Positions 3,973 through 61,310 of a DNA stretch of 64,000 nt are shown piece after piece. The stretch covers positions 1 through 64,000 of IMG/VR virus record IMGVR_UViG_2700988794_000001, one strand, 5' to 3'. The first letter of the stretch is position 1, and each line of letters starts with the position of its first letter. Under the pieces are notes generated by a model. It searched no databases and was not told the DNA's origin. It saw only the letters and a program-made list of their open reading frames with translations. This stretch comes from a virus. Lineage: Duplodnaviria > Caudoviricetes. A program made the translations under genes and the position numbers.

Positions 3973-3995
3973 GAAACACTGATAAGGAGAACCAC

Positions 3996-8561: not shown

Positions 8562-8586
8562 GTAGGCAATCGATAGGAGAACCGCC

Positions 8587-40277: not shown

Positions 40278-40372
40278 TTTGTAATATGTCGTTGACATGT
40301 AGTGTGGATGTGTTACAACCAAATCGTTCCTTGAAGCCTGCCCTTTGGCTCTTTGGAGTTGCGACAAAATCG

Positions 40373-40407
40373 AGCCGTTTGATCTGCCCTGATCAAACGG
40401 CTTTTTT
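40373..40407 (+). terminator. intrinsic terminator
   Basis: AGCCGTTTGATC / GATCAAACGGCT + TTTTT. Confidence 0.85.
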
Positions 40408-40418
40408 CATTTTAGGTG

Positions 40419-40447
40419 TTGACAAAGGATCGTTCCCAAGTTAGACA
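40419..40447 (+). promoter_or_regulatory. promoter, AAGGA-spacer class
   Basis: TTGACA AAGGATCGTTCCCAAGT TAGACA. Confidence 0.75.
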
Positions 40448-40499: not shown

Positions 40500-42173
40500 A
40501 TGGTCGGAGCACAGCTTACAAACGAACAGGCGGTTGTTCGAAATGCGGACGGGTTCCGCTCGAAACTCGCCATCCTCGATAAGGCCGCAGTCGGCGTTAT
40601 CCTCTGCCGCACCCGCGAGCCCTATCGCGCCCTGGACACCATCAAGGACTACGCATTCGGCGAAGACGTTGAATGCCGCCTCTGGACGGTCCTGTATGGT
40701 TGGGCCAAGTACAACAAGGCCGACCCGACCGCTGCGCCCCAGGTGGACAACCTGAAGGAAATCAACGGCGCTCTGATGGCCATCGGCGACATTGCTGGCA
40801 GCACGACCGGCTTCCCGAACGGCTTCTACGCCATGATGTACGCTCACTTCTGGCTGAAGCCGGGCCAAGCCAACCCGGTGACGATCCAGATCATCAAGGA
40901 ATATTGCCGCCTCTTCACGCAGAACGAAAAGCGCCTGATCCTTCTCGCGCCGCTCGGCTACAGCCTTCCGCAGGAACTGGAAGAAGACGTTCTGATCCTG
41001 GACTTCGACACGCCGTCGCACGCCGAGATGGGCGACATTTACGACGTGGTCATGGAAGGCTTCGGCGACAAGAAGCCGAACTTCAACAAGGACGCCAAGA
41101 ACCGCACGCTTGCGGCGGCGGCTGGCATGTCGCAGCAGGAGTTCGAAACCTCGCTGTCACGCGCCGTGGTCACGCACCGCAAGCATCTGCCGAATGTCGA
41201 TCCGGACCTGATTATCGGCGAGGTCATGCAGTCCAAGGTGGAAGTCGTCAAGCGCTCGGAAGTGCTGGAGGTGATGGAAGCCACCAACATGTCGAACGTC
41301 GGCGGTCTCGAAAACCTGAAGGAATGGTTGCGCAAGCGTGCTCCCACCTTCGGCGAGGATGCCAAGAAGTTTGGTATCGATGCACCCAAGGGCATGGCCC
41401 TGATCGGCCCTCCTGGTACGGGTAAGTCACTTTGCGCCAAGGCGACCGCCAACTTGCTCGGCTTGCCGTTGATCAAGTTTGACATCAGCCGCGTGTTCCA
41501 GTCGCTTGTCGGTCAGTCCGAGGAGCGTGTCCGGGCGGCGCTGAAGATGCTCGATGCCATGGCACCCTGTGTCGTCATGCTAGATGAAGTGGACAAGGCC
41601 TTTCAGATGGGCTCTGGCGGCGACAGCGGCGTCTCTCAGCGCATCTTGGGTCTTATCCTGACCCACATGCAGGAGACCCACGCTCCGCTCTTCTGGGTGG
41701 CGTCGGCGAACCGCGTCGATAACCTGCCTTCCGAGTTCCTTCGGCGCGGACGCCTGGACGAGGTGTTCTCTGTCTCGGTTCCGGAAGACGATGAACGGCT
41801 CGACATCATCAAAATCCATCTGCGCAAGCGCGGCCAAGACCCGGACAAGATCAAAGACCTGGACGTGGCAGTGCAGAAGTCGAACGGCTACGTTCCCGCA
41901 GAGTTGGAAGCGGCAGTCAAGGACGCCTTGATCGACGCCTTCAGCGACAACATTCCTGTGACCGGCGAACTGATCGGCAAGCAGCTTGGCAACATGAAGC
42001 CGCTGTCTGTCGCCTTCGCGGAACAGTTCCAGCGCATGACCGAGTGGGCGGATAACAACGCACGCCCGGCGTCGAAGTCCAAGGAGGAGAAGGTTGCCGT
42101 CCGTGCCCGGTCAAGAACCGCACCGGCAGTGGCTTCCTCCGGCAAACGTGCAGGTATGTCACTGGACAGCTAA
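40500..42173 (+). CDS. Ycf46-like AAA+ ATPase
   Basis: VGGLENLKEWL, GPPGTGKS, LDEVDK, EFLRRGRLDEVF; degenerate N-terminal AAA domain. Confidence 0.85.
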   Translation: MVGAQLTNEQAVVRNADGFRSKLAILDKAAVGVILCRTREPYRALDTIKDYAFGEDVECRLWTVLYGWAKYNKADPTAAPQVDNLKEINGALMAIGDIAGSTTGFPNGFYAMMYAHFWLKPGQANPVTIQIIKEYCRLFTQNEKRLILLAPLGYSLPQELEEDVLILDFDTPSHAEMGDIYDVVMEGFGDKKPNFNKDAKNRTLAAAAGMSQQEFETSLSRAVVTHRKHLPNVDPDLIIGEVMQSKVEVVKRSEVLEVMEATNMSNVGGLENLKEWLRKRAPTFGEDAKKFGIDAPKGMALIGPPGTGKSLCAKATANLLGLPLIKFDISRVFQSLVGQSEERVRAALKMLDAMAPCVVMLDEVDKAFQMGSGGDSGVSQRILGLILTHMQETHAPLFWVASANRVDNLPSEFLRRGRLDEVFSVSVPEDDERLDIIKIHLRKRGQDPDKIKDLDVAVQKSNGYVPAELEAAVKDALIDAFSDNIPVTGELIGKQLGNMKPLSVAFAEQFQRMTEWADNNARPASKSKEEKVAVRARSRTAPAVASSGKRAGMSLDS

Positions 42174-42194
42174 GTCTGCCACGTGATATAAAGG

Positions 42195-42307
42195 GCTTGC
42201 TCGGCGCATCCGTTCGCCGGGCAAGGATGAGCGGGGCCGGTTCGTGGTTCCTTCATCCCGCAACCGGGAGGGTTTGAGGTGGTTCTCCGCCCTCCCGGCA
42301 TCCTTTT
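42195..42307 (+). ncRNA. candidate three-hairpin small RNA with anti-RBS loops
   Basis: Stems 42196-42225, 42231-42261, 42264-42298; loops CGTGGTTCCTT and GGTGGTTCTCCG; possible TGGACA-18-TATAAA upstream. Confidence 0.55.
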
Positions 42308-42327
42308 GCAACATGTTGCATTAAGGC

Positions 42328-42356
42328 TTGACAAAGGAACGGTGCCAAGTTAAATT
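42328..42356 (+). promoter_or_regulatory. promoter, AAGGA-spacer class
   Basis: TTGACA AAGGAACGGTGCCAAGT TAAATT. Confidence 0.75.
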
Positions 42357-42385
42357 CCTATTGTGAACCACCACGGAGAACCACA

Positions 42386-43024
42386 ATGCTCATTTCCGCA
42401 ATCACTGGCGACCAGAACTTCCCGAACGGCAGCGCGAAGCTGCATCTCTTTTTCGTCCCGACGCGGCAGCGCATGGGGCAGGAGGTTCATATTGGTCAGC
42501 TTGCCCGAGGCGTCAACCCAGACGTTCCCTGCTCTGCCACCAACATCCGCCGCTTCAATGCGATGAATGGCGCTCCCGAAACCCTTGGGAAGTGGACGCA
42601 GGCCAACTACGATGTCCCAGAGGGTGTCGTGCTCAAGCTCTTCGGCACCCGGCGCACCTCCATCCAGGGGCAGAACATCGGGTCCGCCTCCGCAGTCATC
42701 TATGTCCAGGCGCGCTCGAATGCGGCGCTGACAAGCATCGACTTCAGCCTTATCCCTAACGACCGTTCGCCGATCACGCGGGCAGAGTTGCAGGGTAGGT
42801 TCGACATTCTCACAGGTGCGGAACTCGCACAGCTTGGCGTCTCCATGAACCAACAGACGCTGATGTCCATGAGCGAGCGCAACGTGAGCCGGGTATTCGC
42901 GTTGAGAACCCTTGAACGGCAGCTTCAGGCAAAGCAGACCGTCCGGACCACCACCGTGAATAATTCTGATGGCGAAGCTGTCGTCATTCAGAAGCAGGTA
43001 GCAAGGCGTGCCGTCAAGCTCTGA
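42386..43024 (+). CDS. hypothetical protein (C-terminus RRAVKL)
   Basis: CGGAGAACCAC RBS. Confidence 0.7.
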   Translation: MLISAITGDQNFPNGSAKLHLFFVPTRQRMGQEVHIGQLARGVNPDVPCSATNIRRFNAMNGAPETLGKWTQANYDVPEGVVLKLFGTRRTSIQGQNIGSASAVIYVQARSNAALTSIDFSLIPNDRSPITRAELQGRFDILTGAELAQLGVSMNQQTLMSMSERNVSRVFALRTLERQLQAKQTVRTTTVNNSDGEAVVIQKQVARRAVKL

Positions 43025-43033
43025 ACATAGGCC

Positions 43034-43062
43034 TTGACAAAGGATTGGGGTTAAGTTAGATT
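43034..43062 (+). promoter_or_regulatory. promoter, AAGGA-spacer class
   Basis: TTGACA AAGGATTGGGGTTAAGT TAGATT. Confidence 0.75.
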
Positions 43063-43102
43063 AGTCATAGTGGAATTGACCACGAAGGAAAGGAACCACG
43101 GA

Positions 43103-43546
43103 ATGTCTCATACCACCACACTGAAGGGCGTCCAGATCAAGGACATCGCCGCGCTTCGCGCAGCGGTCGCTGAACTCATCACCCAGGGCGTCAACTGCGC
43201 TCTCCTGGAGAACGCCAAGCCGCGCATGTTCTACGCGAGCCAGCACACCAACTGCGATTACGTCCTGAACCTGAAGGACAGCCAGTACGACGTTGGCTTC
43301 GACAAGCAGAAGGACGGCTCCTACGCTCCGGTGTTTGACGAATGGTCCAACCACGTCTCGGCGAAGATCGGCGCTTCCTGCCCGCTGCCGACCACGGCGG
43401 AAGGCAAAGCCCAGCACCAGATCGGCAAGCTGCTTCAGTCCTACCAGAAGCACGTCGCCATCAACGCCGCCGTCATGTCCGGCTACTCTGTCGAGAGCGC
43501 CGACTACGACAAGGAAGGCAACCTCCAACTCGTGATCAACGCGTAA
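43103..43546 (+). CDS. DUF1257 (Ycf35-like) protein
   Basis: MSHTTTLK..IKD..AL..A, YDVGF...DGSY..V.DEW, L.Q.Y. Confidence 0.75.
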   Translation: MSHTTTLKGVQIKDIAALRAAVAELITQGVNCALLENAKPRMFYASQHTNCDYVLNLKDSQYDVGFDKQKDGSYAPVFDEWSNHVSAKIGASCPLPTTAEGKAQHQIGKLLQSYQKHVAINAAVMSGYSVESADYDKEGNLQLVINA

Positions 43547-43600
43547 GGGCTCCGGCCCTTACCGCCCACCCTCGAAACACAGAAACGGAAAGCAACTCCA

Positions 43601-43819
43601 ATGAGCATGAAGCAGATCAAGGTCACCATCGATCCCATCGGCAACTCCAAGGTCGAAGCAATCGGCTACAACGGCGTCGGCTGCGAAGCCGCCACGAAGA
43701 CGGTCGAAGACGCGTTGGCCGGTGGCAAGGGCGGTGTTGACCGCGTCATGAAGCCGGAATGGTCGAACCCGAACACCGAAGAGCAGACCCAGCAGCAGGG
43801 CATCCCGACCTGGGGCTAA
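43601..43819 (+). CDS. DUF2997 protein
   Basis: IKVTIDP.G...VEA.GY.G.GC..AT...E.AL, KPEW. Confidence 0.8.
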   Translation: MSMKQIKVTIDPIGNSKVEAIGYNGVGCEAATKTVEDALAGGKGGVDRVMKPEWSNPNTEEQTQQQGIPTWG

Positions 43820-43971
43820 GACGATCCGCGAGGGGCTGGCAACGGCCCCATCGCTTCCAAGGTGAAGCCAGCCTCCTCTCATAGCCGCCGCATCATATGA
43901 GAGTGACACTTAAACCCTTCCTCGTGGGGTTTGGCTGGCTTCTCCCTGCAAGCGAAGAGGAGAACCACCCT

Positions 43972-44340
43972 ATGCAGCAAGTCATCACAATCCAGCCGGA
44001 CGGCACCATGTCCGGCCTCCAGGTCAAGCCCGGCAAGGGCATCGACCTCACCAAGCTCGGAAAGGCCCACGTGGTCCGGGCTTCGGAAATCCTCTGGCAT
44101 GAAGAGAAGCAACTCTGGTATGTCAGCCTCCTGAATGAAGAGCGCCAGATGGACGGCCTCTTCGGAACGCTGACCTGGGATATGTGGACAGATGCCGGTC
44201 TCGACCACGAGCAGCTTCCAGCGGCCACCACCTTCTCGGTAGTCCGTGACAACCTCGCTATGTTCTTCCCGGACTATGACAGGGCAGTAATAGCGGAGAT
44301 TGCATACCTCGACGCCATGCGTCTGAAGGGCATCTTCTAA
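43972..44340 (+). CDS. hypothetical protein, probable DUF2997-cluster partner
   Basis: GGAGAACCACC RBS; ITIQPDG...LG...V.RASEI...W...AV.AEI.YL. Confidence 0.65.
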   Translation: MQQVITIQPDGTMSGLQVKPGKGIDLTKLGKAHVVRASEILWHEEKQLWYVSLLNEERQMDGLFGTLTWDMWTDAGLDHEQLPAATTFSVVRDNLAMFFPDYDRAVIAEIAYLDAMRLKGIF

Positions 44341-50651: not shown

Positions 50652-50680
50652 TTGACAAAGGATCGGTTCCAAGTTAGATT
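50652..50680 (+). promoter_or_regulatory. promoter, AAGGA-spacer class, with inverted spacer copy downstream
   Basis: TTGACA AAGGATCGGTTCCAAGT TAGATT; GGAACCGATCCTT at 50696-50708. Confidence 0.8.
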
Positions 50681-50734
50681 GCTTACAGGATCAAAGGAAC
50701 CGATCCTTCTGGAACCGCAACCGAGGAGTTTTTC

Positions 50735-61282: not shown

Positions 61283-61310
61283 ATAAACATCGAAACGGAG
61301 AACCACCGCA

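Follow-up and report, generated by a model that had tools for sequence, protein, structure and literature searches.

A conserved three-hairpin element behind an AAA-ATPase gene of a probable Rhizobium phage carries a loop antisense to a recurrent start-site motif of the phage

The DNA analysed here, referred to below as the window, comprises the first 64,000 nucleotides of the 109,558-bp virus record IMGVR_UViG_2700988794_000001 (Caudoviricetes), which probably represents a lytic Rhizobium phage. On its plus strand lies a structured element of three hairpins (42196-42298), located in the 3′ untranslated region of an AAA-ATPase gene, between the stop codon and a sigma-70-type promoter, and the apical loop of the third hairpin (loop 3) is antisense to a ribosome-binding site (RBS) motif that recurs in front of the phage's own genes. 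Searches against phages with blastn and tblastn found the element in a sole other genome, that of Rhizobium phage RHph_I4 (MN988552), which shares 80.6% DNA identity with the 4-kb stretch around the element and is named in the literature only as a capsid best hit. The counterpart spacer of RHph_I4 measures 222 nt and is the longest non-coding stretch of that genome. An earlier note on the window had proposed that the element is a small RNA shutting off translation of a dispersed set of phage genes, and the sequences, coordinates and complementarities that it quoted were all right on reading of the sequence. The locus contains the following features.

40372 to 40403, plus strand: canonical intrinsic terminator upstream of the AAA-ATPase unit, a 13-bp stem then a T run, kept in RHph_I4
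40419 to 40447, plus strand: promoter cassette of the AAA-ATPase gene, TTGACAAAGGATCG...GTTAGAC, one of 27 copies in the genome
40500 to 42173, plus strand: AAA-ATPase gene, 557 aa (Pfam AAA, E=1.7e-29), 89% identical to the RHph_I4 ATPase
42307 to 42320, no strand assigned: TGCAACATGTTGCA, a palindrome with 47 copies genome-wide, here preceding the next promoter
42328 to 42356, plus strand: promoter cassette of the next gene, TTGACA-17-TAAATT, from the consensus scan and cassette comparison
42363 to 42388, plus strand: start region of the next gene (212 aa) and its leader, GTGAACCACCACGGAGAACCACAATG, in which GAACCAC stands twice; from reading of the sequence

Since the AAA-ATPase gene has a terminator upstream and its own promoter cassette at 40419, the element constitutes the 3′ region of a one-gene transcription unit. 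The three stem-loops that had been described between this gene and the next promoter fold with a minimum free energy of -69.6 kcal/mol (z = -4.3), and none of the shuffled sequences folded as well (0/200). The predicted parts of the fold are listed below.

42196 to 42225, plus strand: hairpin 1, a predicted 10-11 bp stem with an 8-nt loop
42225 to 42258, plus strand: hairpin 2, with a predicted outer helix GGAUGAG/UUCAUCC, an inner helix GGGGCCG/UGGUUCC containing three G-U pairs, and the loop GUUCG
42264 to 42298, plus strand: hairpin 3, a predicted 10-bp GC-rich stem with the loop at 42274-42288 and the anti-RBS core GGTGGTTCTC at 42278-42287
42299 to 42306, plus strand: tail CATCCTTT after hairpin 3, non-canonical as a terminator tail in the terminator scan; the RHph_I4 tail is CATCCGCTT

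Loop 3 measures 15 nt in the window and 13 nt in RHph_I4, which is unusually large for a purely structural hairpin. The motif GTGGTTC occurs twice in the element, 35 nt apart, and both copies are conserved. The copy at 42244-42250, which had been assigned to a loop of hairpin 2, is actually situated in the 3′ arm of that hairpin, where TGGTTCC (42245-42251) pairs with GGGGCCG and has an unpaired probability of about 0. In the window, a short U run starts 5 nt after hairpin 3. No Rfam family reached its gathering score in the window, and nothing relevant was found over 42120-42420 at E values up to 10; a search for tRNA and tmRNA found none, and neither strand of the element holds an open frame conserved between the window and RHph_I4.

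All three hairpins are kept in RHph_I4 despite sequence change. Hairpin 1 of RHph_I4 has an almost wholly different sequence, including a different loop, yet folds into a hairpin of 11 bp; in hairpin 2 the outer helix has shifted its register and acquired a new 3′ arm; and the stem of hairpin 3 is longer through insertions on both arms that pair with each other. The core of loop 3, in comparison, has the same base at 10/10 positions in both phages, making it the sole sequence-conserved loop of the three. The element contains seven G-U pairs in the window and six in RHph_I4, with four in hairpin 2 of each phage. Apart from hairpin 1 of RHph_I4 (-18.4 kcal/mol on the plus and -18.6 on the minus strand), all hairpins are predicted to be stronger on the plus strand: hairpin 2 reaches -18.1 against -10.6 kcal/mol in the window and -15.6 against -7.7 in RHph_I4, and the whole element -69.6 against -57.0. 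Because the G-U pairs favour the plus-strand fold, selection has acted on a plus-strand RNA, and this counts against a purely DNA-level site as well as against a decoy made from the minus strand.

More distant phages with the AAA-ATPase (HJ05, JP1 and RcTiptonus) have a plain terminator, or no spacer, at the corresponding place. As Aeromonas phage HJ05 and Agrobacterium phage JP1 carry the plain terminator at the position of the element, the three-hairpin structure is a lineage-specific addition. Among viral contigs, protein-seeded scans with the next gene and the AAA-ATPase found no relatives, a capsid-seeded scan returned one 5-kb fragment on which the region does not lie, and exact-pattern scans for the element gave no match. 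The hairpin 2 pattern had 107 chance-like matches in metagenome contigs (GC-rich coding or repeat DNA), with the hairpin 3 motif in 0/107 of them, and a three-block pattern scanned against genome contigs had a single match, in Prevotella, by chance.

The loop 3 region reads GGTGGTTCTCCG at 42278-42289, and its core as RNA, GGUGGUUCUC, is the exact antisense of GAGAACCACC. On the plus strand of the window GGAGAACCAC is present in exactly five copies, 5/5 just upstream of a start codon, and its single minus-strand copy is loop 3 itself. Genome-wide there are 11 copies on the plus strand, all of them RBSs, and two on the minus strand, the second of which is the RBS of a minus-strand gene. As had been claimed, loop 3 is antisense to a shared RBS, with complementary stretches of 12, 11, 11, 10 and 10 nt and a further 11 nt including one G-U pair, at the sites below.

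3986 to 3995, plus strand: candidate target, RBS GGAGAACCAC, gene start 3996; 10-nt complement
8576 to 8586, plus strand: candidate target, RBS GGAGAACCGCC, gene start 8587; 11 nt with one G-U to the loop
10963 to 10972, plus strand: candidate target, RBS, gene start 10974; 10-nt complement
42374 to 42384, plus strand: complement in the start region of the next gene; 11 nt
43959 to 43969, plus strand: candidate target, RBS GGAGAACCACC, gene start 43972; 11 nt, no cassette promoter upstream
61296 to 61307, plus strand: candidate target, CGGAGAACCACC, gene start 61311; 12 nt, the longest match

A further complementarity had been noted between CGTGGTTCCTT at 42243-42253, in hairpin 2, and AAGGAACCACG at 43090-43100. 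The flanks of loop 3 differ between the two phages, yet each lengthens the match: the window loop pairs with CGGAGAACCACC, and the RHph_I4 loop pairs with GAGAACCACCAUG(AUC), with wobbles, over up to 16 bp. At three start sites (8577 in the window; 79806 and 108489 in the genome) GAGAACCGC stands where the RHph_I4 orthologues have GAGAACCAC; these three A-to-G variants (CCGC for CCAC), all at the same motif position, face a loop U and would keep a G-U pair.

For statistics on start regions we used the 167 plus-strand annotations of RHph_I4 (of 168 annotated genes in total), from which 166 start regions were scored; our own gene calls proved too noisy and were dropped in favour of these annotations. 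Among the ten-mers in the 166 start regions, GGAGAACCAC is the commonest (14/166) and GAGAACCACC the second (10/166). In the genome of the window, GAGAACC(A/G)C stands before the start codon of 14-15 plus-strand genes, six of them in the window. The AACCACC bases that follow GGAG presumably have no match to the 16S rRNA tail.

Near-identical sigma-70-type promoter cassettes, TTGACAAAGGATCGGTTC...GTTAGATT, number 27 in the genome and 26 in RHph_I4, with short and partly homologous leaders, and most operons of the phage seem to be driven by this single promoter type. Their positions in the window are as follows.

3944, 8533, 10920, 40419, 42328, 43034, 50652, 59719 and 61254: promoter cassettes within the window, with 18 more beyond it

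The first gene behind 11 of the 27 cassettes begins with GGAGAACC(A/G)C, and a twelfth (105556) has the near variant GGAGAACCGAC. The statement that nearly all targets lie behind promoters of this AAGGA class was borne out for 4/5 exact window sites as well as for 8576, 43090 and 50711, and failed for 43959. The suggestion that the regulon is an early one did not stand, as genes with the motif lead operons genome-wide, including in the packaging and head region (3996, 10974); the RHph_I4 orthologues of these two genes are located after the terminase gene and before the portal gene. In family scans of the six candidate targets, two matched PHROG families of no assigned function, one matched DUF6011, and four had no match. 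As a side observation, the RHph_I4 orthologue of the 3996 gene (L010, 25887-25913) has GTGGTTC 10 nt upstream of GGAGAACCAC, and a local 7-bp hairpin would there hide its own RBS; the orthologue in the window has no GTGGTTC at this place.

Pairing was scored for 18-nt windows of the element against the targets, adding the cost of opening both partners. An unrestricted duplex search was dropped, since it gave meaningless full-length duplexes. In RHph_I4, loop 3 reaches 8 of the best 10 among the 166 annotated start regions, at -15.0 to -10.8 kcal/mol, and the median over all 166 is +1.0 kcal/mol. In the genome of the window, scanned as 3,122 plus-strand windows of 70 nt, five start sites bearing the motif fill the six best rows (-14.3 to -12.1 kcal/mol), with the first percentile of the scan at -8.1; the site at 61296-61307 is predicted to pair at -13.3 kcal/mol after opening costs. 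The AAA-ATPase gene's own start region (GGAGAGCAC) is not a predicted partner of loop 3. The predicted partners of the hairpin 2 region are ordinary coding sites, not start regions, and the idea that hairpin 2 specially fits the adjacent start region was dropped, as this region ranks 21st of 166 in nested co-folding in RHph_I4. Chance was estimated from 20,000 dinucleotide shuffles per element, counting those with a 10-mer antisense to any of the eight ten-mers found in at least 5 of the 166 RHph_I4 start regions. Such an antisense 10-mer arose in 41/20,000 shuffles of the window element and 29/20,000 of the RHph_I4 element, or about 0.15-0.2%.

Given that loop 3 is large and is the only loop whose sequence was kept through the remodelling of the stems, something appears to read it, and the simplest reader is the start region that it mirrors. 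We therefore lean, tentatively and with less than even confidence, towards an anti-RBS RNA that acts by base pairing, in the manner of NfeR1 or the P1 c4 RNA, from the 3′ end of the AAA-ATPase transcript. The analysis establishes the structure, strand, conservation and complementarity, whereas that it exists as a separate RNA species, pairs in the cell and represses by this pairing is what we infer. According to this proposal, a plus-strand RNA of about 110 nt would arise either as the 3′ end of the AAA-ATPase transcript or from its own weak promoter just 3′ of the stop codon. A stable body would be provided by the first two hairpins together with the hairpin 3 stem, and apical loop 3 (GGUGGUUCUC) would be the working part, pairing with the extended start region GGAGAACCACC(AUG), a motif that marks the first gene behind many of the 27 cassettes, including the gene directly downstream. 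Such pairing would cover the Shine-Dalgarno sequence and the spacer, exclude the 30S subunit and thereby lower translation. Since the loop reads beyond GGAG into AACCACC, it would address phage start sites rather than those of the host. A candidate for the promoter of its own is the following.

42162 to 42192, plus strand: possible own promoter of the element, CTGGAC / TGGACA, spacer, TGaTATAAA, suggested by reading only and unreported in the consensus scan

A start from this candidate would fall at the foot of hairpin 1. Within it, directly 3′ of the AAA-ATPase stop codon, the block CACGTG-(A/G)-TATA(TA)AAG (42180-42192) is kept in RHph_I4 with different flanks, and it might represent a -10 region preceded by TG, a single-stranded AU site of the RNase E type, or a protein site. 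Neither TATAAAG nor CACGTG-TATA has sibling sites in other intergenic DNA of the genome.

Comparison with known systems could place the proposal among base-pairing RNAs of bacteria and phages. The alpha-r14 or NfeR1 ('cuckoo') RNAs of rhizobia and other alpha-proteobacteria are described as having three hairpins and occluding RBSs, with an identical CCUCCUCCC anti-Shine-Dalgarno motif in all three unpaired regions (PMC10746234). The likeness lies in three hairpins with variable stems, an unpaired motif that is kept and is complementary to the ribosome-binding region, the prediction that a single RNA reaches many mRNAs, and the same host group as that of the phage's relative. The differences are that only the hairpin 3 loop of the element shows the motif, GGUGGUUCUC(C), compared with CCUCCUCCC three times in NfeR1, that CCTCCTCCC is not present in 42195-42312, and that the motif of the element reads only CUCC of the anti-Shine-Dalgarno sequence, followed by 6-7 phage-specific bases. 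Moreover, the element is phage-encoded, lies in the 3′ region of a protein gene, has the phage's own genes as predicted targets and has no Rfam match. The c4 RNA of phages P1 and P7 is a phage-encoded and structured RNA that blocks the RBS of a phage gene through short complementary stretches, thought to be in loops (PMC12197685). The element (42196-42298) resembles c4 in lying upstream of the start region 42363-42388 in the same orientation. Pairing of c4 involves two segments in its loops and two in the target around the RBS, and RNase P releases the RNA from the same transcript; Rfam holds a C4 family model. Unlike c4, which has one target operon (icd-ant), the motif here stands at 14-15 start sites, only one of the element's two motif copies is in a loop, and no Rfam family was matched. 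Lacking the motifs of both and any Rfam match, the element belongs to neither the NfeR1 nor the c4 family.

Several observations weigh against such an RNA. The exposure claimed for the loop holds only in part: UGGU and a few flanking bases of loop 3 are predicted to be open, and the loop of RHph_I4 is more open, but in the window a predicted 4-bp inner helix, GAGG/UCUC, takes most of the anti-RBS core. Consensus scans of the element in the window and in RHph_I4 found no promoter or terminator inside it, and RHph_I4 is without even the short U run after hairpin 3, so that a discrete small RNA would need processing. The promoter class that would transcribe the element is also that of its supposed targets, which makes a simple temporal switch less than obvious. 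Fully conserved blocks of 9-11 nt make up about half of the element, so that the conservation of loop 3 alone is neither exceptional nor decisive. The two genomes that carry the element agree in loop core and in motif, so that the comparison shows conservation and no true covariation of loop and target, the pattern that had been proposed as a check in related phages. Start sites with the motif do top the scans in both phages, and to that extent the targets exceed random sites; nevertheless, the margin over the best non-start sites is small (1-3 kcal/mol), the G-rich hairpin 2 region reaches -11.6 on ordinary coding sequence, and the adjacent gene is only a middling partner (-8.8 kcal/mol in the window and -11.2 in RHph_I4). 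Finally, when all non-coding sequence and repeated motifs are counted, we estimate the chance of such a match at several per cent to 10%.

The element may instead be only a structural 3′ end, which protects the AAA-ATPase mRNA from exonucleases or serves in RNA processing or as a non-canonical terminator; the antisense match would then be incidental or the leftover of an inverted promoter-RBS cassette fragment. We regard this as possible though unlikely. Its position directly 3′ of the stop codon, where relatives have a terminator, the GC-rich stems with the short U run behind hairpin 3 in the window, the many conserved blocks besides the loop, the 27 cassettes that could seed inverted fragments and the non-negligible chance estimate after the look-elsewhere correction all favour it. 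However, the phage uses canonical terminators elsewhere (40372-40403), and the element differs from an intrinsic terminator in having three hairpins with a conserved loop of 13-15 nt rather than 3-8 nt and no U tract at the stem (tails CAUCCUUUUGC in the window and CAUCCGCUUGC in RHph_I4), and it fails the terminator scan in both phages. Moreover, loops 1 and 2 have drifted while loop 3 kept its 10-nt core, which suggests that the loop sequence is read by something, and it is the most common of all start motifs that the loop matches, at the low frequency found among shuffles. A reader of this kind could also be a phage or host RNA-binding protein, such as a nuclease involved in processing or a protein regulating the AAA-ATPase mRNA, with GUGGUUC(UC) in hairpins 2 and 3 as its site and no pairing role for the RBS complementarity. 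Conserved loop sequence suits any sequence-specific reader, and the motif is present in two conserved copies, but their settings differ, paired in hairpin 2 and in the loop in hairpin 3, no candidate protein was identified, and the exact antisense to the commonest start motif would be left unexplained; we consider this account very unlikely. Least probable of all, and in our judgement extremely so, is the decoy that had been offered as an alternative, in which a minus-strand RNA displays GGAGAACCAC as an RBS mimic to titrate a protein or ribosomes. The RBS-like sequence would indeed sit in the hairpin 3 loop on that strand, yet the fold is weaker there, conserved G-U pairs become C-A mismatches, hairpin 2 loses about 8 kcal/mol in both phages, nearly all RHph_I4 genes lie on the plus strand, and no minus-strand promoter reached the consensus scan.

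Pairing might also be confined to cis, as an insulation of the next gene: within read-through transcripts from the AAA-ATPase promoter, the anti-RBS segments of the element would bind the next gene at its leader and start, roughly 90-130 nt further on, and this gene would then be translated only from transcripts of its own promoter (42328), which bears the palindrome as operator and is situated between the pairing partners. There is precedent in phage T4, in which genes e, soc, 49 and I-TevI have an RBS-pairing sequence upstream of a promoter, so that transcripts from the near promoter are without the inhibitory half (PMC3014915). The arrangement here is alike in that the promoter lies between the anti-RBS on its 5′ side and the RBS on its 3′ side. 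Further points in its favour are that the next gene has the only leader with two GAACCAC copies, matching the two GTGGTTC copies of the element, that no canonical terminator separates the two genes as it does in HJ05 and JP1, and that the AAA-ATPase promoter is without the palindrome that precedes the next promoter, which makes separate control plausible. In the minimum-free-energy folds of read-through RNA, the hairpin 2 region pairs with the downstream leader in both phages; however, this long-range pairing has a frequency of 0.005 and is not dominant in the predicted ensembles, with part of it remaining in the centroid of the window and none in that of RHph_I4. The start region of the next gene is 100% identical in RHph_I4 from -23 to +9, but the conservation of its leader (0.91) is tied with that of two others among the 27 cassettes compared. 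The low co-folding rank of the adjacent start region also counts against this reading, as does the better fit of loop 3 to several distant start sites than to the adjacent one. The two halves make up a single short local hairpin in T4, whereas here 90-130 nt separate them and the antisense occupies the loop of a stable hairpin of its own; for cis control a simple local hairpin would suffice, and antisense in the apical loop of a stable hairpin usually meets a separate partner. Taken together, we judge insulation in cis alone to be quite unlikely.

Beyond the element itself, TGCAAC-NN-GTTGCA is a frequent palindrome, with 47 copies in the 109.6-kb genome and 45 in RHph_I4, where 0.015 would be expected from shuffles, and it is probably the DNA site of a dimeric phage protein. 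The window holds 22 copies (e.g., 30, 3919, 9827, 37864, 42307, 50626, 54138 and 61232). In the genome, 13 copies lie 15-30 nt upstream of a cassette -35, and the rest are scattered, some within genes and some just before RBSs. In HJ05 and JP1, TGCAAC-NN-GTTGCA or TGCAAA-CA-TTTGCA follows the terminator of the AAA-ATPase gene. At the promoter at 50652, the spacer sequence AAGGATCGGTTCC (50658-50670) has a perfect 13-nt inverted copy, GGAACCGATCCTT, in the leader at about 50695-50715; the two could pair only in read-through RNA, and RHph_I4 keeps the inverted copy in part. Downstream of the AAA-ATPase gene, 42386-44340 of the window encodes the 212-aa protein, which has no family, then a DUF1257 protein and more small proteins. 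The gene order after the AAA-ATPase is the same in RHph_I4, with a DUF2997 protein, and the distant relatives examined likewise have several small genes downstream of their ATPase.

The observation made in the earlier note was thus largely correct, apart from hairpin 2 and the exposure of the loops, and its interpretation, although unproven, is plausible, partly supported and worth a bench test. Returning to the anti-RBS RNA, its widest form would have one RNA, released from the 3′ end of the AAA-ATPase mRNA, lower in trans, through its single hairpin loop, the translation of the whole GGAGAACCACC-addressed set, that is, the first gene of about half of the cassettes. Such a post-transcriptional regulon would be internal to the phage, with the start region rather than the promoter as its defining feature, and invisible to host mRNAs; we hold it to be rather unlikely. 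Most small RNAs known from phages are encoded by prophages, and host genes are their usual targets. An anti-RBS base-pairing RNA is a known kind of regulator; what might be new is one that is phage-encoded, derived from a 3′ region and directed at a private, extended start motif which many genes at the head of the phage's operons share.

Even with an incidental match, the structured 3′ region is conserved and has taken the place of a terminator. If the proposal is true, the locus would offer a compact and easily tested model, with one loop, one motif and compensatory mutations, and it would explain the conserved AACCACC after GGAG across paralogous and orthologous start sites. A phage with one promoter type could then grade or time the expression of its genes post-transcriptionally.

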